Positions 110 to 57,571 of a DNA stretch of 64,000 nucleotides are shown here, one piece after another (within the stretch, counting starts at the first letter, position 1; every line of letters starts with the position of its first letter). The notes below the pieces were generated by a model, which saw only the letters and a list, made by a program, of their open reading frames with translations, did not search any database and was not told where the DNA came from. Source of the DNA: Cytophagales bacterium. Lineage in GTDB: Bacteria > Bacteroidota > Bacteroidia > Cytophagales > VRUD01. The DNA is taken from positions 9,717-73,716 of the forward strand of contig VRUD01000001.1 in assembly GCA_019456305.1 (NCBI GenBank). Reading direction: 5' to 3'. The translations under genes and the position numbers were made by a program.

Positions 110-175
110 ACTATTGATAATTATTTGTTTTTGCCTACTCTGTTTTAAGGATTTTCGGCTTGATCCTTTTGGTTG

Positions 176-7745: not shown

Positions 7746-9296
7746 TTATTCACTTATTCCCTTTCCCGGGAGTGCAGCAATTATTCTATTGGCCATCTTC
7801 TGTATATTATCACCGATGATCCGTTGGATGTTATTTGAGTTTGAGTTATAGAAGATCTTTATTTTGCTGCCTGCAATTTGTTTGCCCTCCCTGTTATAAA
7901 TGGAGTAATGAACTATAAAATCCCGTTCATAATCCTGCCTCGTCCTGTCTAAACAATGCTCATAATTGGTATTTACTTCAAATTGAGTAACGAAGATATA
8001 ATATCCCAGGTCGTATTTTTTGTTGAAGTATTCAAAAAATTTAGGGTCTTTGATCTTTGCTCCAAAATATTTATTTTCAAACTTCATCTTGCCAAACCTG
8101 CCTGAAAAAGGAGATTCAGGGCTTTTTTTTAATTTTCTTTTCACTGTTTCGAGAGATACAGGCAAAGCCTTTTCTTTTGGAGGGGCATAATTATCTACAT
8201 AATCCGGTTCATTGACCAAATCCTGGTAATTATAAGTTAACGACCTGTATATTTTATTCAGATCAGTTACCGAATCTTCAATGGAGCCTCCCATAAGATG
8301 CACGGTTTCATAATCAGGGGACTGGATCATTGTATTTAAGTTTTTACGGAAAACCTGCCTTACTTTAGTTCTTGGAATACCAGATGCAGCAGCGATCTCA
8401 TCATCAGCATCGGAAAAATATAAATAAGGGTCAAAAGGTACGACTAAAACTTTTTTCTGGGTTCCGGGAACTGGGTTCTTGTCGGAGCGAAGCATAGATC
8501 CCCCCGAGTACTCGGGGGGGGTATTGGTTTCTGGGTACTGATCATCTATTCCCTCTATTTCCCCTTTTACTTCTATTTCCGTATTTACTTCTTTTTCCTC
8601 TATTTCCTCTACATCCTCTACTTCCTTTACTTCCTTTATTTCCTTTACTTTCTTCATATCTTCTTTTTTGCGTGACTTTATATATTCCTTTGCTAACACT
8701 TTTTCCACTGTTTCAACTTCACCCTTTGCCTTATATCCAACAATAAGTTTCTGGCCTGCTTTTATATGCAGGTCATTCAATCCCATTAATTGATCAAGAG
8801 ATATATTGTATTTTTTTGATAAACTCCAAAGGGTCTCTCCTGGTTTTACAATATGAATTATAGCTTCTTTGAATGTTTGTTTTTCTACCAGTATTGTAGG
8901 TTGATGTTCTCCGGTTTCCACGATATGTATGATAATACCTTTTTCAGAAATTCCGGATCTTTTGATGACATCAGGATGATATGGAATGTTGATGACCTGC
9001 CCTGTTTTCAAACCGTTTTCCAATGCAGGATTAATTTCCAGTAGCCCGGCAATGGGTACGCCATGTTTTGTAGAAATTCCATAGATGGTCTCACCGGCAG
9101 AAACCAGGTATATGAGATGGAGCTTGCCTTTGATCTTCTGGACACCGATCGAATCGCAGGAAGGATATGGGGAAATAGAGGAATAGGGAAATAAGGATTT
9201 CGAGTTTCGAGTTAAGGGTATAAGAGTATGTGTTATAGCAGAATAAACTATTGAACTAAAAAAAAACAATAGAAAAATAACAGAATTGTATTTCAT
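7746..9296 (-). CDS. LysM-domain protein (2 LysM) with an acidic KE-rich linker and an unknown C-terminal domain
   Basis: Two LysM-like blocks: YLVSAGETIYGISTKHGVPIAGLLEINPAL..GQVINIP and HIVKPGETLWSLSKKYNISLDQLMGLNDL..GQKLIV. It has an N-terminal signal sequence. Confidence 0.7.
   Translation of the reverse strand: MKYNSVIFLLFFFSSIVYSAITHTLIPLTRNSKSLFPYSSISPYPSCDSIGVQKIKGKLHLIYLVSAGETIYGISTKHGVPIAGLLEINPALENGLKTGQVINIPYHPDVIKRSGISEKGIIIHIVETGEHQPTILVEKQTFKEAIIHIVKPGETLWSLSKKYNISLDQLMGLNDLHIKAGQKLIVGYKAKGEVETVEKVLAKEYIKSRKKEDMKKVKEIKEVKEVEDVEEIEEKEVNTEIEVKGEIEGIDDQYPETNTPPEYSGGSMLRSDKNPVPGTQKKVLVVPFDPYLYFSDADDEIAAASGIPRTKVRQVFRKNLNTMIQSPDYETVHLMGGSIEDSVTDLNKIYRSLTYNYQDLVNEPDYVDNYAPPKEKALPVSLETVKRKLKKSPESPFSGRFGKMKFENKYFGAKIKDPKFFEYFNKKYDLGYYIFVTQFEVNTNYEHCLDRTRQDYERDFIVHYSIYNREGKQIAGSKIKIFYNSNSNNIQRIIGDNIQKMANRIIAALPGKGISE
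8500..8519. repeat. CCCCCCGAGTACTCGGGGGG palindrome inside the LysM ORF
   Basis: Perfect 20-bp palindrome, translated in frame as ..PPEYSGGS.. Confidence 0.8.
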
Positions 9297-13345: not shown

Positions 13346-13603
13346 ATGAAATTAACATATGATCCCCGATATAATATCGCTTATATTTACTTCAAAGAAA
13401 AAAAAACAGAAGTTGAGTCTATAAAAATTAGTGATGAAGTAATAATAGATATTGATACTGATGGTAGTATATATGGTATTGAACTACTCAACGCTAATAA
13501 ACAATTATTACAAAATGGGGATAGGGGTAAAGTTCTTTTCGAGAATGAAGCTACAGGTGAAAAAAAAGAATTATCTATCCTGCCTTCAAAAATTTATTCC
13601 TAA
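13346..13603 (+). CDS. DUF2283-like small protein (putative antitoxin)
   Basis: MKLTYDPRYNIAYIYF...IIIDIDTDGSIYGIELLNA pattern. It starts 10 nt after the previous ORF. Confidence 0.6.
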   Translation: MKLTYDPRYNIAYIYFKEKKTEVESIKISDEVIIDIDTDGSIYGIELLNANKQLLQNGDRGKVLFENEATGEKKELSILPSKIYS

Positions 13604-13608
13604 GGTAC

Positions 13609-13715
13609 CTTCGGAAATTTCAGATGGAATATGGGAGGGAATTTCCGAAGTTTTCTTATTCCCAACACAAACTTCGGAAATCTCCTCCCTGCAGGCCACC
13701 TGAGATTTCCGAAGG
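13609..13715. repeat. Two tandem REP-like hairpins (CTTCGGAAAT stems)
   Basis: CTTCGGAAATT at 13609-13619 pairs with AATTTCCGAAG at 13640-13650. CTTCGGAAATCTC at 13672-13684 pairs with GAGATTTCCGAAG at 13702-13714. Confidence 0.75.
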
Positions 13716-13734
13716 TTTCCTGTCGAAACGTTTT

Positions 13735-13858
13735 TTTCTTTAACTTCTACCAAAAAATGAAAATGATTAGGCATCAGACAATATGACCATACATCCAGGT
13801 AATTTGAAAAATATTTATTACAAATACTTGTTTTTAAAAGAGATTTCTTACCTTTCAC
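13735..13858 (-). pseudogene. Relic of an IS200/RAYT-type Y1 (HUH) transposase
   Basis: ..YFSNYLDVWSYCLMPNHFHFLVEVKE.. contains the (C/V)xMPNHxHxL HUH block of REP-associated tyrosine transposases. The N-terminus and the catalytic-Tyr region are missing. Downstream in-frame codons are just the REP hairpins. Confidence 0.5.
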
Positions 13859-13882: not shown

Positions 13883-13972
13883 GGGCATCTCTAAAAACTA
13901 CACCATACATTCCCCTCTATCAAGAGGGGCAAGGGGTGTGTTTTAAAAAATATGTAGTTTTTAGAGATGCCC
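13883..13972. mobile_element. 90-bp MITE-like element (copy 1), 20-bp perfect TIR GGGCATCTCTAAAAACTACA
   Basis: Identical at 90/90 positions to 49125-49214. It sits between the RAYT relic and the A2M start. Confidence 0.7.
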
Positions 13973-28572: not shown

Positions 28573-29400
28573 ATGTTCTATTTATTGAGAAAATTAATTA
28601 GGTGTAGTATTATCATTTTGGTGTGGTGTCAGGTGTTTCCACCTGACACTCCTGTATTTGCACAGGCTGATAAAACAGCCCGGGAAAATACAGATATGAT
28701 CCCACTTGCTAATGATATGTATAATTTCAGGCATTTTAAAGATGCTCAGGATATCTACCTTAAAGTTCTGGAATTTGGTCCTGATAATGCTGCGGTCAAC
28801 TTGTTGGCAGGTTTATGTTATCTTAAAACAGTGAATAAAGTAAAAGCCATCCCGTATTTAAAAAAAGCACACCAATTGAACCCCGAAATATTGAAGCTAA
28901 TGGTTGATTATATTGAATTTAGCGATGAAGAATTAGCGCGGATCAATTCAACTGATTATATTATATATTTGATAGCAAAAGGATATCACCTGACTCATGA
29001 TTTTAACAAGGCGATAGAATATTATGAGCGTTACCATGATAGTGTTTTGCAAAGAGATTTTTTTAAATGGGGATACAGGTCAAGTGAAAAAAATGAGCTT
29101 ATTAATAAGATAAAGAGAAATATCTTTGAATGTAATAATGGAAAAGAATTTGTGAAGTACCCCGTAGGTGCGTTAATTGACAATATAGGAGTGCTGATCA
29201 ATACGCCTCATTCGGAATATGTACCCTTGATCTCTGCTGATGATTCTGTGCTGATCTTTACATCCAGAAGAATGGGAAGCACTGGCTGGAACAGGTCCGA
29301 AGATCATGACTTTTTTGAAGATATTTATATATCCCGTAAAAGAGGGAATTACTGGGTAAAACCGAAATATAGGCAGCGATATAAATTCTGCCTTACATGA
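28573..29400 (+). CDS. TPR + first PD40 (TolB-like) repeats; 5' part of a frameshifted OmpA-family gene
   Basis: Signal peptide ..VFA|QAD, then TPR-like helices, then ..FTSRRMGSTGW..EDIYIS..YWVKPK. The reading continues in the +1 frame from about 29365. Confidence 0.7.
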   Translation: MFYLLRKLIRCSIIILVWCQVFPPDTPVFAQADKTARENTDMIPLANDMYNFRHFKDAQDIYLKVLEFGPDNAAVNLLAGLCYLKTVNKVKAIPYLKKAHQLNPEILKLMVDYIEFSDEELARINSTDYIIYLIAKGYHLTHDFNKAIEYYERYHDSVLQRDFFKWGYRSSEKNELINKIKRNIFECNNGKEFVKYPVGALIDNIGVLINTPHSEYVPLISADDSVLIFTSRRMGSTGWNRSEDHDFFEDIYISRKRGNYWVKPKYRQRYKFCLT

Positions 29401-29521: not shown

Positions 29522-31837
29522 TTGCATATAAACAGCAATTGTACCGAACCATCCGTATCTGTCACTGCTGACGGTCAAACCTTATATTTTTCAAGTACAA
29601 AACCCGACATATACGGAGACCTTGATATTTTCGTCAGTCATAAAAAAAAGAATGGAAAATGGGGAAAATCAACCAGATTAGGACCTGAAATAAATACAGA
29701 ATATGATGAAGATGCGCCTTTTATACTTCCTGATGGGAAAACATTATATTTTAGCTCCAGAGGTCATAAGGGTATGGGCGATTATGATGTTTTCAGAACC
29801 ATATTGGATGAGAACGGAAAGTGGTCAGAGCCGGAAAATATAGGCTACCCGGTGAATACTGCAGAGAATGATATTTATTTTGTTTTTTCAAATGATGGCA
29901 AGCGAGGGTATTTTTCTTCTTACAGAAAAGAAGGATATGGTGAACAGGATATTTACGTTGTTAATCTGCCCGATTTATTTGCACTTTTTCAACGATTTGA
30001 TAATGATTCTTTAGCTTTAATAGCTATGATAAGATCTTATGGCGTTGAAAGTAATCGGCTGACCAACGAAATAGTTTTAAATGACATATTGGGCGCTGAA
30101 AAAGCAAAAAAAATGGCACAATACCTGGAAATAAAAAGGCTTACCCAAAGCGAAGCGAGGGAACTCGAAAAAGAATTTCTTCAAAAGGATTCAACAGAAG
30201 TTTTAGCTTTAGTAGTATTAGAGGAAGAGGGTAAAATAATAGTGATGGAAGAAGAAGAATTTATGCCTGCCTTTGATCCGCAGGATACAACTGCAACGAT
30301 CAAAGATACTTCTGTTGTAAAAAGTATTACTATTACTACTGACAGCATTGCTGAACAATTTAATGCTGGATTTATGTTCAGTTGTTATTATCGCCTTAGA
30401 ATAGTAGATAAATCAAAGATCACAGTTGAAGGCGGATACATCGTAGATGGAATTACCATCGGATACTATGACCAGGTGGGAGCATTTAACTTTGTTAAAC
30501 TTTCTCCCGATGAGCTCAGGAGACTTTCTGCTCCTGTAGGTTCAATGCTGACTGCCGACAGGGAATTGGTGGTTAATGATATTACTATTGGATACTACAG
30601 TGAAGATGGTGAATTTCACTATTCTAATCTTTCACCTGATGAGATCAGGAGGCTGAGTTCACGTAAGGGACCAGTGCTTACAGCAGACCGCAAATTAATG
30701 TTTGAGGGCGTTACTATTGCATACTACGATGTAGATGGTAAATTTCAGTTTGTCAATCTTTCACCTGATGAGATCAAGAGGCTTAGCTCACCTGAAGGCA
30801 CGATGCTGACGGCAGACAGGAAATACGTAGTGGATAATGTTGCTATCGGTCACTACGATAAAAAAGGAACATTTAAGTTTGCCAAACTTTCTAGTGATGA
30901 GATCAGGAAACTTACACCACCCCCTAAGAGCTCCTTGTTAACGGCAGATAGAAAATTGGTTGTTTATGGAATTACTCTTGGATATTACAATGAGCAGGGA
31001 GAATTTAATGTTTCAAATCTTTCTGCTGATGAACTGGACGAACTTAGTTCAATTGTCGCTGTTTCCCGGAATCAAGTCGATGAGATCACTGTTGGCTGCT
31101 ATGATGACCAGGGAGAATTTAAATATGTAGTACTTTCGCCTGATGAGATCAGATGGCTTACTTCAGTTGCAGGTGCAATGATCACAGCAGATGGAAAATA
31201 TGTAGTTGATGGCGTTACTATTGGATATAGCGCCAGTTCCCAGCCACCTGGCGGGGATAGTATTCCACCGCCTGATTCTCTCTATGGCCCATCTCTCTCT
31301 CCCGCACCCCCTGACCCTCCCGACCAAAGGTACGGGACAGGCCTGAAGGGGGAACGGCCTTCTAATGACTTAACAGTAATAGAGCTACACGAAACAAAAG
31401 ACTCTGCTGAAACTGAAATTGTTTCTGTCTCATCAGAATCTCCCGAAGGGGACCCTGATGATTTTAGCGGTAAAAGTATTGCTTGTGCCGAAGTAGGAAA
31501 AAGTATTAAATTTAAAAATATCCTTTTCAATTTTGACAACTATGCTTTAAGGTCTGCAGCATTTAAAGGATTAAATTATTTGAAAGATGTAATTGAGCCT
31601 TGCGATGAAGTAAAAATTACCATCATCGGGCATACAGATAATGTTGGTCCTGCTTCCTACAACCAGGCCTTATCAGAAAAAAGGGCAAAATCAGTATATG
31701 ATCAATTAATAAAAAAAGGTGTCCAGTCAAGTAAATTAACTTATAAGGGATATGGTGAAGAAAAACCGGTCGTGCCCAACGATACAAAAGAAAAACGGCA
31801 GCTTAACAGGAGGGTGGAGTTTGAAATTTTAAATTAA
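29522..31837 (+). CDS. PD40 repeats + six 44-aa novel repeats + OmpA C-terminal domain; 3' part of the same gene
   Basis: PD40 patterns (TADGQTLYFSS, LPDGKTLYFSS, SNDGKRGYFSS). C-terminal OmpA-like block FDNYALR...IIGHTDNVG...YNQALSEKRA..V...NRRVEF. The frame is open back to 29360. Confidence 0.8.
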   Translation: MHINSNCTEPSVSVTADGQTLYFSSTKPDIYGDLDIFVSHKKKNGKWGKSTRLGPEINTEYDEDAPFILPDGKTLYFSSRGHKGMGDYDVFRTILDENGKWSEPENIGYPVNTAENDIYFVFSNDGKRGYFSSYRKEGYGEQDIYVVNLPDLFALFQRFDNDSLALIAMIRSYGVESNRLTNEIVLNDILGAEKAKKMAQYLEIKRLTQSEARELEKEFLQKDSTEVLALVVLEEEGKIIVMEEEEFMPAFDPQDTTATIKDTSVVKSITITTDSIAEQFNAGFMFSCYYRLRIVDKSKITVEGGYIVDGITIGYYDQVGAFNFVKLSPDELRRLSAPVGSMLTADRELVVNDITIGYYSEDGEFHYSNLSPDEIRRLSSRKGPVLTADRKLMFEGVTIAYYDVDGKFQFVNLSPDEIKRLSSPEGTMLTADRKYVVDNVAIGHYDKKGTFKFAKLSSDEIRKLTPPPKSSLLTADRKLVVYGITLGYYNEQGEFNVSNLSADELDELSSIVAVSRNQVDEITVGCYDDQGEFKYVVLSPDEIRWLTSVAGAMITADGKYVVDGVTIGYSASSQPPGGDSIPPPDSLYGPSLSPAPPDPPDQRYGTGLKGERPSNDLTVIELHETKDSAETEIVSVSSESPEGDPDDFSGKSIACAEVGKSIKFKNILFNFDNYALRSAAFKGLNYLKDVIEPCDEVKITIIGHTDNVGPASYNQALSEKRAKSVYDQLIKKGVQSSKLTYKGYGEEKPVVPNDTKEKRQLNRRVEFEILN
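30440..31231 (+). repeat. Six tandem 132-bp (44-aa) coding repeats
   Basis: Units have the form V(D/N)xITIGYYdxxGeFxxxxLSPDEIRRLSSxxGxMLTADRKxV. Confidence 0.85.
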
Positions 31838-31865
31838 AAAGGTTTTCGTGGTGTCGGGTGTTTCC
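31701..31865. repeat. 165-bp direct repeat, copy 1 (last 46 codons of the OmpA gene plus left arm of its terminator hairpin)
   Basis: Matches 32642-32806 with 3 mismatches. Confidence 0.9.
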
Positions 31866-31872
31866 ACCCGAC

Positions 31873-32610: not shown

Positions 32611-32641
32611 AACAAAAATAAAAAAACTGGGCATAACAATT

Positions 32642-32806
32642 ATCAATTAATAAAAAAAGGTGTTCAGTCAGGTAAATTAACTTATAAGGGATATGGTGAA
32701 GAAAAACCGGTTGTGCCCAACGATACAAAAGAAAAACGGCAGCTTAACAGGAGGGTGGAGTTTGAAATTTTAAATTAAAAAGGTTTTCGTGGTGTCGGGT
32801 GTTTCC
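32642..32806. repeat. 165-bp direct repeat, copy 2
   Basis: See 31701-31865. Confidence 0.9.
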
Positions 32807-32852
32807 TTGTAGAGACGTTGCATGCAACGTCTCTACAAGGAAACACCCGACA
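32793..32852. repeat. 60-bp perfect palindrome (nested hairpin elements)
   Basis: TGTCGGGTGTTTCCTTGTAGAGACGTTGCA|TGCAACGTCTCTACAAGGAAACACCCGACA is an exact reverse complement. It is followed by TCAGGTGGAAACACCTGA at 32859-32876. Confidence 0.9.
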
Positions 32853-38123: not shown

Positions 38124-39002
38124 ATGGAATTAAAAATCAATAATCTATCAAAAACTTATCCGAATGGTGTAGAGGCGTTAAAAAATGTCTCCTTAACGAT
38201 TCCTACTGGCATGTTTGGTTTACTTGGGCCGAATGGCGCAGGTAAATCAACCTTAATGCGCATCATTGCTACTTTACAGCAAGCAGATACGGGTTCTGTT
38301 TATCTTGATGATCTAAACGTATTGGACCAAAAGGATGAAGTTAGAAAATTATTGGGATATCTACCGCAGGAATTTGGCTTGTACCCAAAAGTAACTGCTG
38401 AAGGTTTGTTGAATCATTTTGCAGTATTAAAAGGTGTTTCTAATCCTAAAGAAAGAAAAGAAGTGATCCATGGTTTACTTCAATTAACCAATTTATATGA
38501 GGTGAGAAAGAAAAATCTGGGAACTTTTTCCGGAGGTATGAAACAACGGTTTGGTATTGCACAAGCACTTTTAGGCGACCCAAAGTTGATCATTGTAGAT
38601 GAACCTACGGCAGGGTTAGACCCTGCTGAGCGCATACGGTTTCATAACCTGCTGAGTGAAATCGGGGAAAATGTCATTGTTATACTTTCTACGCATATTG
38701 TGGATGATGTAAGTGATCTATGCAGCAGCATGGCAATCATTCATCTTGGAGAGGTGCTCTTAACCGGAAGCCCTTTGCAGCTTATGAATGATCTGAAAGG
38801 CAAAGTGTGGGAAAAAGTAATTGAGAAAGATCAGCTAAAAGCGTATAAGGATAAATTTAATGTTATCTCTGCCAGGTTGTTTGCCGGCAAGTCCCTGATC
38901 CATGTGTATAGTGAACAAAAACCGGATAAATCTTTTGAGACGGTACCACCTGAATTGGAAGATGTATATTTTTCTACTATTACAAAAGATATTCATGTTT
39001 AA
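38124..39002 (+). CDS. ABC transporter ATP-binding protein
   Basis: Walker A GPNGAGKST, signature FSGGMKQR, Walker B LIIVDEPTAGLD. Confidence 0.9.
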   Translation: MELKINNLSKTYPNGVEALKNVSLTIPTGMFGLLGPNGAGKSTLMRIIATLQQADTGSVYLDDLNVLDQKDEVRKLLGYLPQEFGLYPKVTAEGLLNHFAVLKGVSNPKERKEVIHGLLQLTNLYEVRKKNLGTFSGGMKQRFGIAQALLGDPKLIIVDEPTAGLDPAERIRFHNLLSEIGENVIVILSTHIVDDVSDLCSSMAIIHLGEVLLTGSPLQLMNDLKGKVWEKVIEKDQLKAYKDKFNVISARLFAGKSLIHVYSEQKPDKSFETVPPELEDVYFSTITKDIHV

Positions 39003-42000
39003 AGAAATTTTCTTTTTTGAACTTAAATACCGCTTCAAGCGCCCTGCCAATTACATATATTTTGGCATTTTCTTTTTGCTGACTTTCCTGGCAGTGAATG
39101 GAATGGCCGGGGGTTTCAAAGGAGTGGTCATCAGTGTTGGCAGCGGAGGCGGAGGGAAAGTACTGGCAAACTCACCATATCAAATTTATCTCCTGATAAC
39201 TCTTCTAAGTTATTTTGGCATTTTGGTGACTTCAGCCATTATGGGCAATCCTGTTTACAGGGATTTTGAACACCAAACGCATTCTTTATTCTATTCAAAA
39301 CCTATTTCTAAATTCGGATATTTAGCGGGCAGGTTTTTGGGTTCATTGGTAATTGCTTTTTTGGTTTTTTTAGGTCTTGGAATAGGGATTTTAACTGCTT
39401 CATGGATGCCGTGGTTAGACCAGGATTATATTGGTCCATTTTATGCAATGGCTTATGTGCAGCCCTATTTAGTTACAGTACTTCCCAACCTGATATTTAC
39501 AGGCGCTATCTTTTTTGCATTAGCCACGCTCACCAGGAATATTCTTTCTACTTATGTTGGAAGTGTTGTTTTCTTAGTCTTGTATTTTATGGGGCTCAGC
39601 CTTCTTTCTGACCTGGAAAATGAAACTATTGCAGCATTATTAGATCCATTTGGAGAAAGCGCTACCGGATTAGCAACAAAATATTGGACAGTAGCTGAAA
39701 AGAATACATTGATCATTCCATTTACCGGGCACTTATTTTTCAACAGAATTATCTGGTTAAGTGCCGGTGTATTGATCTTTGCTTTTGCATATAAAAAATT
39801 CAGCTTCTCTTATTTTATTTCAGAAAAGAGATCTAGGAAAAAATTGAAGCAGCAAACTTTAGAAACTGAAACAATAGATTGGGCAGGGAAATTTTTAATA
39901 CCACGAGCAACCAGGATATTTTCCTTTTCTACAAATTTAGTACAATATATTAAACTTACAGGGCAGGAATTAAAAGGAATTGTAAAGAACGTTTACTTTA
40001 TAGCCATACTATTTGCCGGTGTAGTGCTGATGTTTGTTAATGGAAGCCAGGTTGGAAAGTTTTATGGAACAACTACCTATCCCGTTACCTACCAGGTTAT
40101 TTCAATAATAAGCGGCTCTTTCGGCTTGTTTTTTCTTATTATTATTATCTTTTATGCCGGTGAATTGGTTTGGAGAGAACGTACAACCAAGATCAATCAG
40201 ATTTTTGATGCCCTACCCATCCCTAACTGGGTGCCGTTTAGTTCTAAATTAACTGCTTTGATCCTGCTTCAGGTCGTATTACTCTTAGTAGTAATGCTGT
40301 GTGGTTTAATCATCCAGGTATTTAAGGGGTATTATCATTTTGAGACCGGTCTATATGTAAAATCATTATTCGGATTACAATTTATAGAACTTGCCTTGCT
40401 TTGTGTATTAGCCATGCTGGTCCAGGTAATCGTAAATCATAAATATCTTGGACATTTTATCATGGTTGTATATTTTTTGGTGAGCATTTTTATGGCGCAA
40501 TTTGGTTGGGAACATAAACTATATGATTACGCTGATGATCCGGGATATACCTATTCTGATATGAATGGCTTTGGACATTTTATCTTGCCGATTGGGTGGT
40601 TTAAAATTTACTGGACGGCTTTTGCAGTATCATTAGCGATATTGTCTAACCTTTTCTGGGTACGGGGGTTGGAAACAAGCCTTAAATGGCGGACTCAACT
40701 TGCAAGAAGACAATTTGTTAAGCCCACAAAAATAGCTTTTATCTTAGCTTTATTGGTATTCTTTATTTCCGGTGGTTTTATTTTTTACAATACCAATATC
40801 TTAAATGAATATATGACCAGCAACGAAAGAGAAGAACTAAGTGTAGAATATGAAAAGCGATATAAAAAGTTTGAAAATTCACCACAACCGCGTATAACAG
40901 ATGTAAATGTCAACGTAGATATCTACCCACTTAGCAGAGATGTTGCATTTAAAGGACATTATATTTTAAAAAATAAAACCAACGAGGCTATTGATTCTAT
41001 CCATATTGATATAAATCGCAACATAACTATTAATGATATGTCTTTTGACAGGAATCATAAAATGGTTTTGGAAGATGAGAAGATAGGGTACTACATAGTT
41101 GAATTATCAAAACCATTATTGCCGGGTGAAAATGTAGTGCTTCAATTTGATTTAGCTTTCACTACGAAAGGGTTCAAAAATAGCGGCTCCAATACAAGTA
41201 TCGTTGAAAACGGGACATTTTTACATAGTAACAGCTATTTACCCGCTATTGGCTACAACGAAGGCGGAGAATTAAGTGATGATGATACCCGTAAAAAACA
41301 TGGCCTGAAACCTAAAGAACGTATGGCTTTAGTAAATGACAGCAATGCAAGGTTGAATAATTATATCTCACATGATGCTGATTGGATTACTTTTGAAGCT
41401 ACTATAAGTACCAGCCCGGATCAGATTGCTATAGCGCCTGGTTATTTACAACGTGAATGGACAGAGGGTAACAGAAGATACTTTCATTATAAAATGGACT
41501 GTAAAATTTTGAATTTTTATTCTTTCCTATCTGCAAGGTATGAAGTTATAAGAGATAGCTACGGCCCTACCAGCCCCCCTAACAGCCCCCCTAAATCCCC
41601 CCAAAGGGGGGCTGTTAGGGGGGCTATTGAAATTTATTACCATAAAGGACATGAATACAACCTGGATGCTATGGTAAAAGCTATTAAAAGATCTTTGGAT
41701 TATTATACAGAAAATTTCTCACCCTACCAGCATAAGCAAGTCAGGATACTGGAATTTCCCCGCTATGCTTCATTTGCACAATCATTTCCTAATACCATTC
41801 CTTATTCAGAAGCAATAGGTTTTATTGCACAGGTAGATGAGGATGATGAAGATGATATTGATTATCCCTTTTATGTTACAGCCCATGAAGTAGCGCACCA
41901 ATGGTGGGCTCACCAGGTGATAGGAGGGAATGTACAAGGCGCTACGGTGATGTCTGAAACCATGTCTCAATATTCAGCCTTGATGGTGATGGAAAAAGAG

Positions 42001-42732
42001 TTTGGAAAGGAAAAAATGAAGAAATTTCTTAAATATGAATTGGACAGATATTTAAGAGGTAGAAGTTTTGAACGAAAAAAGGAACTGCCGTTGATATTGG
42101 TAGAAGGACAGGGATATATTCATTATCAGAAAGGTGGGTTGGTAATGTACGCATTGCGTGATTACATAGGAGAGGATTCATTAAATGAAGCGTTAAGAAA
42201 ATATATCAAAGCAGTAGCTTATCAACAACCCCCATATACCAATTCACTGGAATTTTTAAGCTATATCAAATCAGCTACCCCCGATTCTCTGCAATATATA
42301 ATAAAGGATATGTTTGAAACGATTACCTTGTATGAAAACAAAACCAATGAAGCTGTACTTAAAAAACGCCCGGATGGTAAGTATGCTGTTAAGATTAAGG
42401 TAGCGTCTAAAAAGTTACGGGCTGACAGTTTGGGAAATGAAAAAGAGATCCCTGTTAACGACTGGATAGATATTGGGATATTTGGTAAATCCGAATTGAA
42501 AGCAGAGACGCCCAATTTGGACGTCTCTGCTTTCAATTCGGAAAAAAACTCTAATTCGGATAAATCCTCTATTGGTAAGCCTTTGTACCTGAAAAAACAT
42601 AAAATTAACCAGCCGGAAATGGAATTTGAAATTATTGTAGACGAGCTTCCCTGGAAAGCCGGCATAGATCCCTATAATAAATTAATTGACCGTGATTCGG
42701 GAGATAATGTAAAGAAGGTAGGGGCTGGTTGA
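38995..42732 (+). CDS. ABC-2-type permease fused to an M1-family zinc aminopeptidase domain
   Basis: The ATG at 38995 overlaps the ATPase stop (ATGTTTAA). About 12 TM segments run to roughly 40800. Then comes a peptidase domain with HEVAHQWW...E zinc site. Two hairpin insertions are carried in frame. Confidence 0.8.
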   Translation: MFKEIFFFELKYRFKRPANYIYFGIFFLLTFLAVNGMAGGFKGVVISVGSGGGGKVLANSPYQIYLLITLLSYFGILVTSAIMGNPVYRDFEHQTHSLFYSKPISKFGYLAGRFLGSLVIAFLVFLGLGIGILTASWMPWLDQDYIGPFYAMAYVQPYLVTVLPNLIFTGAIFFALATLTRNILSTYVGSVVFLVLYFMGLSLLSDLENETIAALLDPFGESATGLATKYWTVAEKNTLIIPFTGHLFFNRIIWLSAGVLIFAFAYKKFSFSYFISEKRSRKKLKQQTLETETIDWAGKFLIPRATRIFSFSTNLVQYIKLTGQELKGIVKNVYFIAILFAGVVLMFVNGSQVGKFYGTTTYPVTYQVISIISGSFGLFFLIIIIFYAGELVWRERTTKINQIFDALPIPNWVPFSSKLTALILLQVVLLLVVMLCGLIIQVFKGYYHFETGLYVKSLFGLQFIELALLCVLAMLVQVIVNHKYLGHFIMVVYFLVSIFMAQFGWEHKLYDYADDPGYTYSDMNGFGHFILPIGWFKIYWTAFAVSLAILSNLFWVRGLETSLKWRTQLARRQFVKPTKIAFILALLVFFISGGFIFYNTNILNEYMTSNEREELSVEYEKRYKKFENSPQPRITDVNVNVDIYPLSRDVAFKGHYILKNKTNEAIDSIHIDINRNITINDMSFDRNHKMVLEDEKIGYYIVELSKPLLPGENVVLQFDLAFTTKGFKNSGSNTSIVENGTFLHSNSYLPAIGYNEGGELSDDDTRKKHGLKPKERMALVNDSNARLNNYISHDADWITFEATISTSPDQIAIAPGYLQREWTEGNRRYFHYKMDCKILNFYSFLSARYEVIRDSYGPTSPPNSPPKSPQRGAVRGAIEIYYHKGHEYNLDAMVKAIKRSLDYYTENFSPYQHKQVRILEFPRYASFAQSFPNTIPYSEAIGFIAQVDEDDEDDIDYPFYVTAHEVAHQWWAHQVIGGNVQGATVMSETMSQYSALMVMEKEFGKEKMKKFLKYELDRYLRGRSFERKKELPLILVEGQGYIHYQKGGLVMYALRDYIGEDSLNEALRKYIKAVAYQQPPYTNSLEFLSYIKSATPDSLQYIIKDMFETITLYENKTNEAVLKKRPDGKYAVKIKVASKKLRADSLGNEKEIPVNDWIDIGIFGKSELKAETPNLDVSAFNSEKNSNSDKSSIGKPLYLKKHKINQPEMEFEIIVDELPWKAGIDPYNKLIDRDSGDNVKKVGAG
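41572..41625. repeat. 54-bp hairpin in frame in the M1 domain
   Basis: AGCCCCCCTAACAGCCCCCC (41572-41591) is the perfect reverse complement of GGGGGGCTGTTAGGGGGGCT (41606-41625). It encodes ..SPPNSPPKSPQRGAVRGA.. Confidence 0.9.
42491..42541. repeat. 51-bp hairpin (AGACG-CCCAATTTGG-CGTCT core family) in frame in the M1 domain
   Basis: CCGAATTGAAAGCAGAGACG (42491-42510) is the perfect reverse complement of 42522-42541, with loop CCCAATTTGGA. It encodes SELKAETPNLDVSAFNS. Confidence 0.9.
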
Positions 42733-46631: not shown

Positions 46632-46660
46632 TGATTTTGGTTAGTTGGAAAGTGTTTTTT

Positions 46661-46787
46661 GCCACAAAAGCACAAAAGCACTAAATCCCACTAAAAATTA
46701 ACTAATTGATTTTCAGGGTTTTGTGGGATTTAGTGCTTTGGTGTTTTAGTGGCATTTTTATTTTTTGGACTTTTTAGAGTGGACTCA
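46661..46787. repeat. Second copy of the 2066-2218 hairpin (outer left arm missing)
   Basis: GCCACAAAAGCACAAAAGCACTAAATCCCAC..loop..TTTTGTGGGATTTAGTGCTTTGGTGTTTTAGTGGCATTTTT..GAGTGGACTCA. Confidence 0.8.
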
Positions 46788-47047
46788 AATAGTAAAATTA
46801 AATTCATGGCAAAAGTACTTCATCTCTCACAGAATATCAACCAAATTTATTTTATAAAAAAAACATCACTAAAAATTTGTATATTAAAAAACCATCCAAT
46901 ACCTTCGCCCGCAATTTTTGATCCACGCCTGTAGGCGCGGGATCAATATTTAATTTATTATTTAAACAAACACGGAACACGGAACGTACAGACGCCCAAA
47001 TTGGGCGTCTCAACATTCCTCAAATTCCTCAAAACAAATTAATTATC

Positions 47048-47587
47048 ATGAACAAGACAATAAAAAAAATTTTAGCAATTACAGCAATAGCTTTGATTGC
47101 TATGCCTTTGTTTTACAGTTGTAAGAAAGGCGAAAATGACCCGTTTATTTCTTTACGTTCCAGGGATAAACGAATTACCGGGGAATGGAAATTGGTTTCA
47201 GCTGAAGAAACTTCTACTTGGAGTCGTGACTTTGGATTTGGCGCTACTAGTGGTTCAACTACTACTATTTATGATGGTAAGACATCAGTTACAACCGGGG
47301 GTGGTTCTTCCTTATACACATTAACCATAACTTTTGAAAAAGATGGAACTGCCACTTATAAGGAAGATGATGATGGTGATATTGAAGACGTCACAGACGA
47401 ATGGTTTTGGTTAGATTCGAAGAAAAACAAAACGACCATTTCTCATCCATTTGGATTTTTTGTAGTTGATCAACTTAAGAACAAAGAATTAATTTTAAAA
47501 GATTCCGGAACAAATAATCAAAGTGGGTCTGGATGGTATGACAATAATTCATGGGAAGAAACCTGGACTTTTGAAAAACAAAAGTAA
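47048..47587 (+). CDS. Lipocalin-like lipoprotein (paralog family A)
   Basis: Lipobox ..PLFYSC|KKGEND and ITGEWKLVS motif. 179 aa. Confidence 0.6.
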   Translation: MNKTIKKILAITAIALIAMPLFYSCKKGENDPFISLRSRDKRITGEWKLVSAEETSTWSRDFGFGATSGSTTTIYDGKTSVTTGGGSSLYTLTITFEKDGTATYKEDDDGDIEDVTDEWFWLDSKKNKTTISHPFGFFVVDQLKNKELILKDSGTNNQSGSGWYDNNSWEETWTFEKQK

Positions 47588-47610: not shown

Positions 47611-47652
47611 AAAAAAGCCCTGCTCCCGAGTACTCGGGACGGGGCTTTTTTT
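47611..47652 (+). terminator. Intrinsic-terminator-like hairpin with the CCCGAGTACTCGGG core in its loop
   Basis: AAAAAAGCCCTGC-TCCCGAGTACTCGGGA-CGGGGCTTTTTTT, 24 nt after the stop. Confidence 0.7.
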
Positions 47653-48104
47653 CAACTACATGAATGTTTTTTTAAAAGAATAAAAATCGTTAAATTTGAT
47701 TAGTACAATCAGAGTCTCCCGGAAATCCTAAATTCAAACATATTACTATCTTAAAAAGGGGACTCTGATGGGACTCCTTAAAAATATTAGAATATATTTT
47801 TCGCACACATCAGAGTCCCCTGTTCAGGTTTTTGGTATGACTGCCTGCAACGTGTAGGCTTTTCGAAAGGCAAGCAGGTACGAAGTTTGTATTGGCGGGA
47901 GACTCTGATGGGACTGAAATTTATTTTATAAAAAAACATCACTAAAAATTTGTATATTAAAAAACCATCCAATACCTTTGCCCGCAGTTTTTGATCCACG
48001 CCTGTAGGCGCGGGATAAATATTTAACTTATTATTTAAACAAACACGGAACGTACAGACGCCCAAATTGGGCGTCTCAACATTCCTCAAAACAAATTAAT
48101 TATC

Positions 48105-48950
48105 ATGAAAACAATTAAAAGATCTTTAGTGGTAATAGCCACTTGTTTATTGGTTTTAGCAGTTATGGAAAGTTGTAAAAAAACCGCAACACCAAAAAAG
48201 TTAGACGGTAAATGGAAAGCTACAAAAGGTACGAGTACTCGTACAAGTACACAAAAATTGACGTGGTTGGGGTGTACACCAAATGATTGCAGCAGTACCT
48301 CAACTACTACCGAAACTTTTGATGGTGCTACCTGGACGGGTACAATGACATCTTCGAGTACTGATGGGAATGGAATTGTCACACCTAATCCGGACGTACC
48401 CATTGATGATAAGGAAACCATGTCTTTATCTTTTGATAAAAAGAACGGTACCTTTGAGCAATCATTTGTAGGGACTAATACTTATAAAAATCCTTATTGG
48501 AGCAATGTATATGATGATACTACCGCAGCTCCTCTATATAATGGTGGCGCTCTGGATCGAAAAGATGTTACTTCATCAACCGGAACGATGAAAGGAGATT
48601 TTCAGGTTACGGGAGGACTTGGTGATACTGATAAGAAATCTCAGTTTATTCTTTTTGGGACATCATGGACTGATAATTGGACTTCAACTTATTCCTACTT
48701 CCTGACTGGTACTGATAGTTCTGTTAATGTTACGAATTTGTATGTCCAAGATTGGCCTAATTATATTAAAGTGCCAACATCTGAATCAGGTACAGATGGT
48801 TCAATCGGAGAATCAAGTGATGGAGATGTATGGACTGTAACAGAGAACAAAAAAGGTACAATGACAATGAACCAAACTGAAAGTTCTACTAATTCAGATG
48901 GAAGCAACACCTCTTCTTATACCGAGGAATTAACTCTGGAAAAGGAATAA
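48105..48950 (+). CDS. Thr/Ser-rich lipoprotein (paralog family A)
   Basis: Lipobox ..AVMESC|KKTATPKK and LDGKWKAT motif. 281 aa. It shares 5' and 3' flanks with 47048-47587. Confidence 0.6.
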   Translation: MKTIKRSLVVIATCLLVLAVMESCKKTATPKKLDGKWKATKGTSTRTSTQKLTWLGCTPNDCSSTSTTTETFDGATWTGTMTSSSTDGNGIVTPNPDVPIDDKETMSLSFDKKNGTFEQSFVGTNTYKNPYWSNVYDDTTAAPLYNGGALDRKDVTSSTGTMKGDFQVTGGLGDTDKKSQFILFGTSWTDNWTSTYSYFLTGTDSSVNVTNLYVQDWPNYIKVPTSESGTDGSIGESSDGDVWTVTENKKGTMTMNQTESSTNSDGSNTSSYTEELTLEKE

Positions 48951-49026: not shown

Positions 49027-49066
49027 AAAAAGCCCTGATCCCGGGTATTCGGGAGGGGCTTTTTTT
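49027..49066 (+). terminator. Terminator-like hairpin with core variant CCCGGGTATTCGGG
   Basis: AAAAAGCCCTGA-TCCCGGGTATTCGGGA-GGGGCTTTTTTT. Confidence 0.65.
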
Positions 49067-49124
49067 CAACTACATGAATGTTTTTTTAAAAGAATAAAAA
49101 TCGTTAAATTAGTAATTACCTTTT

Positions 49125-49214
49125 GGGCATCTCTAAAAACTACACCATACATTCCCCTCTATCAAGAGGGGCAAGGGGTGTGTTTTAAAAAATATGTAGT
49201 TTTTAGAGATGCCC
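49125..49214. mobile_element. 90-bp MITE-like element (copy 2) with a 12-bp target-site duplication
   Basis: Identical to 13883-13972. It is flanked by TAATTACCTTTT at 49113-49124 and 49215-49226. Confidence 0.8.
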
Positions 49215-49693
49215 TAATTACCTTTTTTAAAAAACACCCCCATCCCCAGCCTGAACACAAACGCATTTGATAGAACATAATAGTCTGCATTTGCCTCAAC
49301 AGCCCAGTGATCGTTAAGCATAAAATCATTTCCCAGACCGAATGAAACATCAAAACTACTTCCCTTTAGTGGGGCTTTTACCAAATAATAACCTTTACTT
49401 CTTAAAAAAAAGGTTTCAGAAAAATATAACCTTAGACCGAGCGCTGCAGCGCTTCTGCTTAAAGAATTAAAATACTCAAAACCCCCGGATAAGGCGAATT
49501 TATCAGCAGCAAAGTAGTTAAGGTCAAATCCAAAGCCAACGCTTTTACCAAAATTCTTGAATGGCTTTTTGTTGTTTGTATTGTATAGATTAACCCCACC
49601 GTTTAGCAGAAAATCTCCCTGGTAAGGTTGGGCATTTGCTGTTAAAACACAACTCATTGCCGCTACAAAGACAGAAAATTTGAATGCTTTCAT
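49214..49693 (-). CDS. Small outer-membrane beta-barrel protein
   Basis: Signal peptide MKAFKFSVFVAAMSCVLTANA|Q followed by alternating beta-strand pattern. 159 aa. Its stop codon TAG is formed at the MITE junction. Confidence 0.65.
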   Translation of the reverse strand: MKAFKFSVFVAAMSCVLTANAQPYQGDFLLNGGVNLYNTNNKKPFKNFGKSVGFGFDLNYFAADKFALSGGFEYFNSLSRSAAALGLRLYFSETFFLRSKGYYLVKAPLKGSSFDVSFGLGNDFMLNDHWAVEANADYYVLSNAFVFRLGMGVFFKKGN

Positions 49694-56089: not shown

Positions 56090-57571
56090 CTAAATATCTG
56101 ATGGTATAAACGACTGGGCATATTTGTTCCGAATCAATTCATCAATGAGACTTTCAACTTCCTCACTATCCCATTTTTGTTCTATATCCTCAATAGTAGT
56201 GATTTCTTTGAGCATTTTATCCTGTTCTTTGCCGATCCGCATAGCTTCAGCATAGGGGATATGGCTAAACATGACCATAGAATATAAGGGAGTAAATTTA
56301 TCAGGGTATGATTTATGGATCTTTCTTTCAAGATTTTTTCGTACTAAAAATTTAGGGTCTCCTACCAGGTCGCGCATTTCAATAAAATTCTGAAGTGCCA
56401 GTTCTGAAATGGCATCCGTATTGGGTTTACGGTTTTTTTCATATTCCTTAAAAATAGTTTCCCACCGTTCTCCCCCGATTGGGTCGTTCCTGCCATCTGG
56501 GCAGGCATACTTTCCCATCAGTTCATTTAGCACTGTTATGTCTTCAAAGCCAGCGATCATTCCCTGGCCGTAAAAGGGAACGATAGCGTGGGCAGCATCA
56601 CCGATCATAGCTACCTTATCTTTGTATGTCCATGGAAAGCAGCGAATATAGCAGAGTGATGAGGTAGGGTTGGCAAAATAAGTTTCAGTCAAAGCAGGCA
56701 TCAAGTCCGCGGCATCAGGGAAGGTTTGAAAAAACTTCAGCAGATCCGATCCTGTTTTTATGGAGTCAAAAGAGGTTGTATCAGTGCCTGTTCCGGAAGA
56801 ATCAGTAGTGTCAGGTGTTTGGTAGAGACGCCCAATTTGGTCGTCTCTACCAAACACCTGACGCCAAGGTAAAAATAAGGTACAGGTAAAGCTCCCATCT
56901 GCATTGGGCAGGGCGATCAGCATATAGTGTTTTCTAGGCCAGATATGTAAGGCATTTTTTTCCATAGCCCAACTGCCGTCAGCGGCAGGCGGAATGGTCA
57001 ATTCTTTATAACCATGTTCAATATAAGTTTGTGCATAATTAAAACGATCGGTCATTTGCATTACACTCCGTATTTGTGAAAAGGTGCCATCAGCGCCAAA
57101 TACCAGGTCACTTTTTACATCTGAGACAGCTCCTGTCTTTTGATTTTCTACTTTGATCACAGCTTCTTCCAAATCAACATCCACGCATTTTTCGTTGAAA
57201 TGAATGGTAGTGTTAGAATTTTTTTCAGCATGGTTCATCAGCGTTTTATTGAGCCCGCTGCGAGAAACAGCGTATATGGCGTCATCTTCTTTTCCGTAGG
57301 GTTGAAAAGAAAGTTCGCCATTGACTGCATGTATCATCCTGCCGCGCATGGGTATGGCTGCCTTGCGGACTTCTTCACCAATGCCCGCATCATCCAGCGC
57401 TTTCCAGCCCCTGGTAGAGCAGGCAAGGTTAATAGACCTGCCGGCAGGTATTTTTGCTTTTCGCATATCGGACCTGCTTTCATAAACATCTACCTGATAG
57501 CCCTTTCTTCCCAGGTATATGGAGAGCAGTGAGCCGATAAGCCCTGCGCCTGTTATGGTGATGTGCTTCAT
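56090..57571 (-). CDS. kmo: Kynurenine 3-monooxygenase (FAD-dependent)
   Basis: ITITGAGLIGSLLSIYLGRKGY FAD fold, GDAAHAIVPFYGQGM motif, and a C-terminal helical region. It carries a hairpin insertion in frame. Confidence 0.85.
   Translation of the reverse strand: MKHITITGAGLIGSLLSIYLGRKGYQVDVYESRSDMRKAKIPAGRSINLACSTRGWKALDDAGIGEEVRKAAIPMRGRMIHAVNGELSFQPYGKEDDAIYAVSRSGLNKTLMNHAEKNSNTTIHFNEKCVDVDLEEAVIKVENQKTGAVSDVKSDLVFGADGTFSQIRSVMQMTDRFNYAQTYIEHGYKELTIPPAADGSWAMEKNALHIWPRKHYMLIALPNADGSFTCTLFLPWRQVFGRDDQIGRLYQTPDTTDSSGTGTDTTSFDSIKTGSDLLKFFQTFPDAADLMPALTETYFANPTSSLCYIRCFPWTYKDKVAMIGDAAHAIVPFYGQGMIAGFEDITVLNELMGKYACPDGRNDPIGGERWETIFKEYEKNRKPNTDAISELALQNFIEMRDLVGDPKFLVRKNLERKIHKSYPDKFTPLYSMVMFSHIPYAEAMRIGKEQDKMLKEITTIEDIEQKWDSEEVESLIDELIRNKYAQSFIPSDI
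56810..56862. repeat. 53-bp nested hairpin in frame in kmo
   Basis: GTCAGGTGTTTGGTAGAGACG (56810-56830) is the perfect reverse complement of 56842-56862, with loop CCCAATTTGGT. It encodes ..RQVFGRDDQIGRLYQTPD.. Confidence 0.9.

Follow-up and report, generated by a model that had tools for sequence, protein, structure and literature searches.

We analyzed a 64,000-nt stretch of DNA from an uncultured Cytophagales lineage (GenBank assembly GCA_019456305.1, contig VRUD01000001.1, positions 9,717 to 73,716 of the forward strand), called the window in this paper, in which a gene for an ABC-2 permease fused to an M1-family aminopeptidase contains two long hairpins that are translated in frame. The features of the window are summarized in Table 1, and positions are counted from its first letter. 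The mechanically called open reading frame (ORF) of the M1 gene starts at position 38902 and encodes 1276 amino acids (aa); the probable true start is the MFKEIF at position 38995. The Pfam models ABC2_membrane and Peptidase_M1 both matched the encoded protein, the latter at residues 927–1120 of the 1276-aa ORF, and the HEVAH...E zinc site is unbroken. The protein has more than 1600 homologs, the usual length of which is ~1210 aa vs. 1245 aa in the window, and the surplus of 35 aa equals 18 + 17.

An initial annotation, made from the letters alone, had described two perfect hairpins with 20-bp stems, 54 and 51 nt long, inside the M1 peptidase domain. Both hairpins exist and encode the peptides that were given for them, and the length of hairpin 1 was correct. 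The 20-bp perfect stem of hairpin 2 at 42491–42541 was also correct, but the full palindrome measures 53 nt rather than 51. Similarly, both hairpins are in the M1 gene but outside the part that the Peptidase_M1 model matches: they are at residues 891–908 and 1197–1214, within the aminopeptidase half, and flank the core matched by Pfam. Hairpin 1 reads AGCCCCCCTAACAGCCCCCCT-AAATCCCCCCAA-AGGGGGGCTGTTAGGGGGGCT, and an inverted-repeat scan found its arms AGCCCCCCTAACAGCCCCCCT and AGGGGGGCTGTTAGGGGGGCT to be 100% complementary; hairpin 2 reads TCCGAATTGAAAGCAGAGACGCCCAA-T-TTGGACGTCTCTGCTTTCAATTCGGA, with a central T. When folded as single-stranded DNA, the two gave −28.1 kcal/mol (z = −7.1) and −26.7 kcal/mol (z = −10.7), respectively, and in each case none of 200 shuffled sequences folded as well. 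An AlphaFold model of the aminopeptidase half (mean predicted local distance difference test, pLDDT, 78; residue 1 corresponds to window position 40900) places both peptides, at model residues 224–238 and 533–556, in segments with pLDDT < 50 between beta strands, i.e., in predicted disordered loops. A search of Rfam 15 returned no gathering-level match at either hairpin, only sub-threshold microRNA-like hairpin matches.

Table 1. Positions of the features of the window that are discussed in the text.
Feature	Position	Strand	Remarks
Gene for ABC-2 permease fused to M1-family aminopeptidase (host gene)	38995–42732	+	1245 aa from MFKEIF
Hairpin 1	41572–41625		54 nt; 21-bp perfect stem, 12-nt loop; translated as SPPNSPPKSPQRGAVRGA
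Extra 5' half-unit AGCCCCCCTAAC in hairpin 1	41572–41583	+	Exact inverted copy GTTAGGGGGGCT at 41614–41625
Canonical unit AGCCCCCCTAAATCCCCCCAAAGGGGGG of the C-run/G-run family	41584–41611	+	28 nt; dispersed
Hairpin 2	42490–42542		Palindrome of 53 nt; the 26-nt arms have a single mismatch; translation (K)SELKAETPNLDVSAFNS(E)
Host-derived outer arm TCCGAATT of hairpin 2	42490–42497	+	Partner AATTCGGA at 42535–42542
Palindromic segment missing from L001 and L002	42498–42534		37 nt, replacing 1 nt; net gain of 36 nt (12 codons) in the window
"Double-foot" REP core in hairpin 2	42502–42530		29 nt; reads GCAGAGACGCCCAATTTGGACGTCTCTGC; family consensus GTAGAGACGCCCAAWTTGGGCGTCTCTAC
Second intragenic copy of the hairpin-2 REP core, nested in GTCAGGTG...CACCTGAC	56810–56862		Encodes RQVFGRDDQIGRLYQTPD
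Intergenic perfect palindrome, GTCGGGTG...CACCCGAC filled with the REP variant GTAGAGACG-TTGCATGCAA-CGTCTCTAC	32793–32852		60 nt; z = −13
Empty small hairpin GTCGGGTG-TTTC-CACCCGAC	31853–31872	+	Preceded by GTGG; paralogous empty state of 32793
Empty small hairpin GTCAGGTG-TTTC-CACCTGAC	28628–28647	+	Preceded by GTGG; arms as in the filled copy at 56810
Intergenic REP copy GGAACGTACAGACGCCCAAATTGGGCGTCTCAACATTCC	46981–47019		Identical copy at 48047–48085, where the upstream segment is duplicated
Hairpin of another family CCCCCCGAGTACTCGGGGGGGG	8500–8521		Translated in frame as part of a low-complexity linker; LysM protein (ORF 7746–9296, minus strand)
Possible remnant of a Y1/HUH transposase gene, containing YCLMPNHFHFLV	13586–13858	−	Followed by in-frame TTCGGAAAT hairpins

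The inserts are polymorphic among close relatives. We aligned the DNA of four orthologous M1 genes: those of the window, of L001 and L002 (both ~93% identical to the window), and of L003 (99.8% identical). Because L003 is an independent assembly from another sample and carries identical inserts, the possibility that they are assembly artefacts was ruled out. At hairpin 2, the 37-nt segment listed in Table 1 is absent from both of the ~93% identical relatives, where the site reads TCCGAATTA-CATTCGGA in L001 and CCCGAATTA-CATTCAGA in L002. At the site of hairpin 1, L002 is empty and L001 has a longer inverted doublet, in which two inverted units surround a 41-nt spacer and the outer arms AGCCCCCC...GGGGGGCT are those of the window. 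The insert lengths that matter for the reading frame, relative to these genes, are a net 36 nt at hairpin 2 and about 51 nt at site 1. The proteins of distant orthologs are ~35 aa shorter and do not encode the hairpin residues, both peptides falling in gaps of the protein alignment, at sites that are indel-rich in all orthologs. This outcome favours the initial annotation, which equivalent residues in hairpin-free orthologs would have contradicted. Since the inserts are absent at ~93% identity and present at 99.8%, they would be younger than ~7% and older than ~0.2% divergence. The recent origin that the initial annotation had suggested is therefore supported by these relatives, but its suggestion of active maintenance is not: L003 has a T>C substitution in the 3' arm, which disrupts one base pair of hairpin 2 and is uncompensated.

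Just downstream of hairpin 2, at 42535–42570, there is an 18-nt tandem duplication (CATTCGGATAAACCCTCT / AATTCGGATAAATACTCT in L001), which is common to the window, L001, and L002 and absent in the distant orthologs. The 8-mer AATTCGGA occurs at this site twice directly and once inverted, indicating a loop with past small duplications. Its direct repeat might be taken for a target-site duplication of hairpin 2, but it is part of the 18-nt tandem duplication and also occurs in the insert-free relatives, and this interpretation was rejected. No duplication flanks hairpin 1. The combination of terminal inverted repeats and a target-site duplication that defines a MITE, or miniature inverted-repeat transposable element, was found at neither hairpin.

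The centre of hairpin 2 is a repetitive extragenic palindromic (REP) sequence. We scanned a collection containing one genome per species with the query AGACGCCCAANTTGGNCGTCT and found the core in at least 120 genome stretches, which belong to Bacteroidales, Cytophagales, Ignavibacteria, Kapaibacterium, Desulforhopalus, Synergistales, Cloacimonadota, Patescibacteria, and others; the 29-nt consensus in Table 1 was read from these copies after they had been lined up. The REP of hairpin 2 is a variant of this consensus with one apical mismatch and one base changed in each foot, and the two foot changes (GTAG to GCAG and CTAC to CTGC) are mutually complementary. The GTAG...CTAC feet are intact in the window copies at 56822 and 32809. 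In the window itself, the core pattern gave four matches vs. 0.02 expected, the others being at 46988, 48054, and 56824. The initial annotation was thus right that hairpin 2 shares its core with elements at 46990, 48056, and 56810, but the first two of these are one element in a duplicated upstream segment, so that only three of the four copies are independent. The near-identical upstream segments, ~190 nt each (~46850–47045 and ~47915–48105), precede the lipoprotein-like genes 47048–47587 and 48105–48950, and each of them also contains a second hairpin, GATCCACGCCTGTAGGCGCGGGATC.

When the ORFs around the REP loci were clustered, one family of 170–245-aa proteins was found within 8 kb in 23 of the ~120 loci. 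These proteins read ...YFITICT...VVMPNHVHGIIII..., followed by a variable linker and ...GVIINQYKR...WQSRFHDHIIRN...YIxNNP..., and have NHVH and WQ motifs; two members matched the Pfam model Y1_Tnp (IS200-like transposase). In these 23 loci, the REP is inside or beside the Y1/HUH transposase gene, and in the linker between the HUH and Tyr motifs it is translated in frame as VETPNLGVST, sometimes several times. In four of the genomes outside the window, the genes of this type (L080:2076-2795, L056:2-495, L122:2979-3955, and L106:3808-5461) have up to four to six in-frame copies of REPs or half-REPs, an example being the peptide ETPNFGI repeated six times, and regular REP arrays with periods of ~54, 97, and 137–177 nt adjoin such genes. 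The family is mostly extragenic: 12% of the copies are in stop-free stretches of at least 300 codons vs. 62% of random positions, and 14 of 120 are nonetheless intragenic. Because the palindrome is stop-free in two of the three frames on either strand (VETPNLGVS and RDAQFGRLY), its survival in frame is easy. The copy in the M1 gene uses the first of these frames, and the copy at 56810, which is in a kynurenine-3-monooxygenase-like gene (ORF 56090–57571, minus strand), uses the second. No conserved target motif is apparent 5' of the REP foot across the aligned copies, and a full-text literature search for the core sequence returned unrelated primers only.

These properties correspond to a known class of elements that the initial annotation had overlooked. 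Passages of Quentin et al. (2018, PMC6006769) on the transposase TnpA_REP subclass 2.4, which is group 4 of the RAYTs (tyrosine transposases that are associated with REPs), give the motifs NH[IFV]H, WQ, and YIxNNP, a distribution over Cyanobacteria, Bacteroidetes, and various other phyla, "double-foot" REPs with a GT[AG]G foot 5' and a complementary foot 3', and REPs in frame inside the tnpA_REP gene itself. The present family (see also Bertels et al., 2017) agrees in the GTAG/CTAC feet of its consensus around a long perfect hairpin, in its occurrence in Bacteroidetes and scattered other phyla, in the motifs of the associated Y1 proteins, and in the in-frame REPs between the HUH and Tyr motifs of the transposase genes at loci of other genomes. 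It departs from what they describe in the GCAG/CTGC feet of the M1-gene copy and in the lack of a cognate transposase gene in the 64-kb window. Hairpin 2 also has the size and fold expected of a REP (a 20–50 nt palindrome forming a stable hairpin; its core has 29 nt), and its family has many dispersed, mostly extragenic copies and, in other genomes but not in the window, the association with a Y1/HUH tnpA_REP gene. REP cores at the apex of other hairpins and the inverted repetition of loop bases, both presented below, are not described in the passages of PMC6006769 that deal with subclass 2.4.

Hairpin 1 belongs to a second family, the unit of which has a C-run and a G-run. Its 21-bp perfect stem consists of the outer pair AGCCCCCCTAAC/GTTAGGGGGGCT plus GGGGGGCT opposite AGCCCCCC, and the canonical 3' end of the unit, ACTTT, is replaced in the window by CTGTTAGGGGGGCT, an exact inverted copy of the left 14 nt, AGCCCCCCTAACAG. 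A stretch of 23–24 nt of the AGCCCCCCTAAATCCCCCCAAAGGGGGG unit is also found within a TPR gene of L001 (L001:2508), and another C-run/G-run hairpin within a glycosyltransferase gene of L002. A scan of metagenomes detected the unit in eight unrelated contigs with G+C from 0.34 to 0.46, where it is arranged as singles, as inverted doublets (L126, L128, and L130), or as a tandem array (L126), and the fuller consensus of the family is ...CCCCCCTAAATCCCCCCAAAGGGGGGACTTT. A REPIN is a REP doublet that forms a hairpin (Bertels and Rainey, 2011, PMC3116915), and the hairpin-1 family is similar in that it occurs as two inverted units around a spacer, at the orthologous site of L001 and in the three contigs with inverted doublets. 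Unlike REPINs, hairpin 1 of the window has inverted half-units and no spacer, the units have no GTAG tag, and no RAYT was found beside the family in the eight metagenome contigs. The perfect stem of hairpin 1 arose either by collapse of an inverted doublet, such as L001 still has, or by fold-back copying with the register shifted. Site 1 would carry an older insert that has since been remodelled, with L001 keeping the inverted doublet with its spacer and the window having a compact, perfectly paired derivative. Judged by sequence, we are thus probably dealing with an intragenic REP of a RAYT group 4/subclass 2.4 system and a second, REPIN-like family.

Since REPs inserted in frame are already on record, the finding as such is not novel. 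REPs of the GTAG and CGTC types have been described inside genes of other bacteria (Di Nocera et al., 2013, PMC3733652), and the present hairpins resemble them as short palindromes in frame in unrelated genes, translated, and presumably accommodated by loops or linkers, with two sites in some genes. The host phylum (here a metagenome-assembled genome of Cytophagales) and the repeat sequences are different. In their behavior, the hairpins are also like the Rickettsia palindromic elements (RPEs), being in frame, absent from orthologs, and located in low-confidence loops; the likeness meant here is one of behavior. RPEs, reportedly described by Ogata et al. in 2000, are said to be palindromic repeats in frame in protein genes that are translated and tolerated in loops. 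The classical RPE-1 is longer than the present elements. Insertion sequences such as IS1397 and ISPpu10 target REP hairpins. They have a transposase of their own, unlike the present case, in which the inserted DNA is itself a palindrome of 29–37 nt; what is shared, as with ISPpu9 (PMC8450116), is the landing of mobile DNA inside a palindromic repeat.

We then consider the arms of hairpin 2, which differ from those of the other copies of the core and are nevertheless self-complementary. The initial annotation had recognized this, had judged point mutation a poor explanation, and had proposed either repeated nesting or the copying of flanking sequence in inverted orientation; our results agree with the first two statements and give good support to nesting. 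Hairpin 2 has three layers. Its outermost 7–8 bp (TCCGAAT(T)/(A)ATTCGGA) form an inverted repeat even in the insert-free relatives; in L001 they read ATCCGAAT-TAC-ATTCGGAT and are the sole host palindrome of at least 7 bp in the 3.75-kb gene, the C/G-run element aside. The outer arms are unique to this site and yet complementary, most likely because the REP landed at the centre of a pre-existing host palindrome. The middle layer consists of 4–6 bp, GAAAGC/GCTTTC, that are neither host nor REP consensus, and no donor copy with this linker was found in the window or in the fetched loci. The inner layer is the REP itself, with both feet changed complementarily. The possibility that an arm corresponds to host sequence from before the insertion thus applies to the outer 7–8 bp, but these were already inverted and were not copied at insertion, and only the 4–6 bp of the middle layer need another origin.

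The same nesting is seen elsewhere in the window. A small hairpin, GTCRGGTG-TTTC-CACCYGAC, usually after GTGG, is empty at 28628, 31853, and 32867 and filled with a REP at 56810 and 32793. The empty hairpin at 31853 and the filled one at 32793 have a common left flank of 168 nt, which is 98% identical. The filled copy reads GTCGGGTG-TTTCC-TT-[GTAG...CTAC]-AA-GGAAA-CACCCGAC, i.e., the loop TTTCC is mirrored as GGAAA on the other arm, and in the copy at 56810 the loop TTT is mirrored as AAA. These two cases suggest the inverted copying that had been proposed, but donor bases carried over or a central deletion would be alternatives, and such copying is not the whole explanation. The common flank is a direct repeat (31698–31865 and 32639–32806) that covers the 3' end of an OmpA/PD40-like gene and the left half of the small hairpin; its copies bracket ~770 bp with two small ORFs, and both terminate within the loop of the hairpin, which looks as though an insertion or duplication of the segment had taken place there.

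The site at 56810 exists in three states. The gene of L133 is without all 54 nt, the window is filled, and L132 agrees with the window in the outer arms and in the GTAGAGACG stem, with the linkers GAT/ATC vs. TTTG/CAAA in the window and the apex AAGCATGCCT vs. ACCAAATTGGG. Point mutation could not plausibly interconvert these palindromes, and the presence of two different perfect palindromes at one site implies that at least one insertion or replacement took place at the apex. In the same gene, a 33-nt in-frame insert at 56474–56506 (minus strand; GCCTGCCCAGATGGCAGGAACGACCCAATCGGG, a CCTGCC/GGCAGG hairpin) is present in the window and L133 and absent from L132 and the distant orthologs. In other genomes, 56 of 83 REP copies have no complementary flanks, as chance predicts, and 9 of the 83 are in much longer perfect palindromes vs. 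0.3 expected, some of them terminator-like. One REP copy of L026 is nested inside another.

The present results establish the family membership of the hairpins, the presence/absence polymorphism among relatives, the location in predicted loops, and the existence of REP cores at the apex of hairpins that also occur empty. The best explanation, which we regard as well supported, is that both hairpins are REP-type mobile palindromes that were caught in a gene and are tolerated because they add whole codons in loops. In the mechanism that we propose, two miniature palindromes inserted into the coding sequence would have persisted because they brought whole codons and no stops into loops tolerant of extra residues, and the encoded peptides are most likely passengers without function. 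The REP of hairpin 2 most likely entered the lineage of the window after its split from the ~93% identical relatives and would have landed at the centre of the short palindrome already present in the host gene. By analogy with E. coli and group 3 enzymes (PMC8266576), the elements may move in single-stranded form, with a TnpA_REP that is encoded at another place in the genome cutting and rejoining them at the feet of the hairpin. The single-stranded loops of existing hairpins may be their preferred targets.

The junction may later have been perfected by intramolecular template switching (quasipalindrome correction), in which loop or flank bases are copied inverted. In E. coli, the correction of quasipalindromes by template switching is a well-documented source of mutations that is stimulated by DNA–protein crosslinks (PMC7202029, PMC6357072). 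The inverted loop bases and the paired foot changes are what the arm copying from imperfect to perfect palindromes described by the Lovett laboratory in these studies would produce; it is a mutational process and not an element family, and here it is seen from its end products only. We speculate that the covalent HUH–DNA intermediate, which is a DNA–protein crosslink, could conceivably stimulate such switching. From the sequences, nesting is supported and fold-back copying is plausible. A more general model, to which we give clearly less than even weight, would be that subclass 2.4-type REP cores specifically home to hairpins that are already present (host palindromes, terminators, or other REPs), at their single-stranded apex, and that fold-back templated synthesis, possibly stimulated by the covalent transposase–DNA intermediate, perfects the junction, so that palindromes grow from the centre outwards in onion-like layers.

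Several observations weigh against this interpretation of the hairpins. The mechanism of REP dissemination is described as unknown (PMC8266576), the cleavage and joining of single-stranded REPs has been demonstrated for group 2 and group 3 enzymes only (PMC8266576), and no transposition of a subclass 2.4 REP has been demonstrated experimentally. A tblastn search for a RAYT gene across the 64-kb window found no intact gene, only a weak possible remnant of a different Y1/HUH gene, and no RAYT or other transposase was found beside the hairpin-1 family in the eight metagenome loci. With its GCAG/CTGC feet and apical mismatch, the copy in hairpin 2 may have ceased to be a substrate. Nor is it proven in which direction the site of hairpin 2 changed. 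Pairwise distances between the M1 genes switch partner along the gene in 400-nt segments (for example, window–L002 is 0.055 where window–L001 is 0.102, and elsewhere the order is reversed), which indicates recombination among the lineages of the window, L001, and L002; the gene is thus a mosaic. A short palindrome would likewise remain if the ancestor that L001 and L002 share had undergone a central deletion. In a triplet rooted with distant orthologs, nine derived residues are common to the window and L001, eight to L001 and L002, and one to the window and L002, so that there is no clear split. In the monooxygenase-like gene, the 33-nt insert groups the window with L133 and the REP composite groups it with L132, and this incongruence means that at least one of the two characters was gained twice or precisely lost.

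The strongest alternative is that the long palindromes are ancestral and that the short forms of the relatives are central deletions, in which case the "host palindrome" and the "empty" hairpins would be leftovers rather than targets. Long palindromes are prone to instability and to the loss of their central part, and a central deletion leaves a shorter palindrome, which would equally explain why the only palindrome of the L001 gene is at the site of hairpin 2. Near hairpin 2, moreover, L001 and L002 are mutually closest (0.049 vs. 0.060 and 0.071), so that one ancestral deletion would be enough; the indels of the monooxygenase-like gene conflict with the gene distances and require some loss or re-gain; and, according to the passages of Quentin et al. 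cited above (PMC6006769), inverted dimers that lost their centre by deletion could be the source of the double-foot REPs themselves. We nevertheless consider deletion unlikely. Both sites are empty in the distant orthologs, independent deletions would be unlikely to leave one and the same 4-nt loop (TTTC) in three small hairpins, and the different apexes and linkers within identical outer arms at the monooxygenase site require insertion or replacement at the apex. The REP copies of other genomes that have no complementary flanks (56 of 83) also indicate that the 29-nt core is the mobile unit. In the same way, the direction of gain is argued for by the distant orthologs, which are empty at all sites, by the constant TTTC loop in three copies, and by the two apexes at one site, which cannot both be ancestral.

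It is much less probable still, and in our view hardly credible, that the hairpins are functional structures with stems kept by selection, whether in the mRNA (ribosome pausing or an RNase block), as DNA binding sites, or as useful surface loops of the protein. The stems are perfect and very stable, the GT>GC and AC>GC changes of the feet compensate each other, and roles of REPs in mRNA stability and translation have been reported in E. coli (cited in PMC8266576 and PMC3733652). However, template switching also yields compensating changes on both arms, the hairpins are absent from the ~93% identical relatives and from all distant orthologs, and the 99.8% identical strain has an uncompensated mismatch in the stem; furthermore, the peptides are in predicted disordered loops, and copies of these units are dispersed over unrelated genes and intergenic DNA. 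A purely local origin, by fold-back or template-switch synthesis from flanking host sequence and without any mobile element, would account for the loop bases inverted on both arms of the filled copies and for the right arm of hairpin 1, which is an exact inverted copy of its left flank, and quasipalindrome template switching is a real mutational mechanism, but as the whole explanation this origin was ruled out, with next to no probability left to it, because many unrelated genomes contain matches to the 28-nt unit in hairpin 1 and to the 29-nt centre in hairpin 2, which therefore cannot come from the flanks of the gene, and because the outermost arms are already on both sides in the insert-free relatives; all that is left of it is a secondary role in perfecting the junctions of inserted REP-type palindromes.

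Other palindromes are present in the window. The core CCCGAGTACTCGGG of the hairpin in the LysM linker is also found at the apex of the palindromes at 173–208, ~7539, and 47611–47652, and in a diverged form near 49040; the palindromes at 47611–47652 and near 49040 have terminator-like arms (A-run...T-run). The palindrome at 173–208, with the core CCCCGAGTACTCGGGG, is directly adjoined by a DUF805b RNA motif (132–168, minus strand), which is the only gathering-level Rfam match in the window (41.6 bits, E = 2e-8). Two further families of long hairpins have two copies each in the window, at 2093–2184 and 46660–46754 and at 13883–13972 and 49122–49217. One of these two families has arms of ~35 nt (GCCACAAAAGCACAAAA...), and the other has the arms GGGCATCTCTAAAAACTACA and TGTAGTTTTTAGAGATGCCC around a 50-nt spacer, the arm TGTAGTTTTTAGAGATGCCC beginning with GTAG when read from its G. 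The region 13586–13858 gave repeated weak tblastn matches with RAYT-like queries and a Pfam Y1_Tnp match with E = 0.0085, which is below the curated cut-off. Its ORF runs in frame through three copies of TTCGGAAAT/ATTTCCGAA hairpins (13601–13689), and it may be the remnant of a RAYT-like gene that was invaded by a different REP.

The value of these sequences is as comparative material: three or four lineages that are 93–99.8% identical differ in the presence, absence, or variant of the elements at several sites, namely two in the M1 gene, two in the kynurenine-monooxygenase-like gene, and one paralogous pair of empty and filled hairpins in the window. Comparisons of these sites give both the target before insertion, a hairpin loop, and the junction after it, in which loop bases are repeated inverted. 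They are natural pairs with and without the insert that can be used to test how REPs spread, which is an open question (PMC8266576), and, if homing to the apex and fold-back synthesis were true, the empty and filled pairs of this clade would expose the footprint of REP dissemination. For annotation, VETPNLGVS, RDAQIGRLY, and similar peptides in "hypothetical proteins" should be read as translated REPs. In this lineage, selfish palindromes lengthen the loops of proteins.

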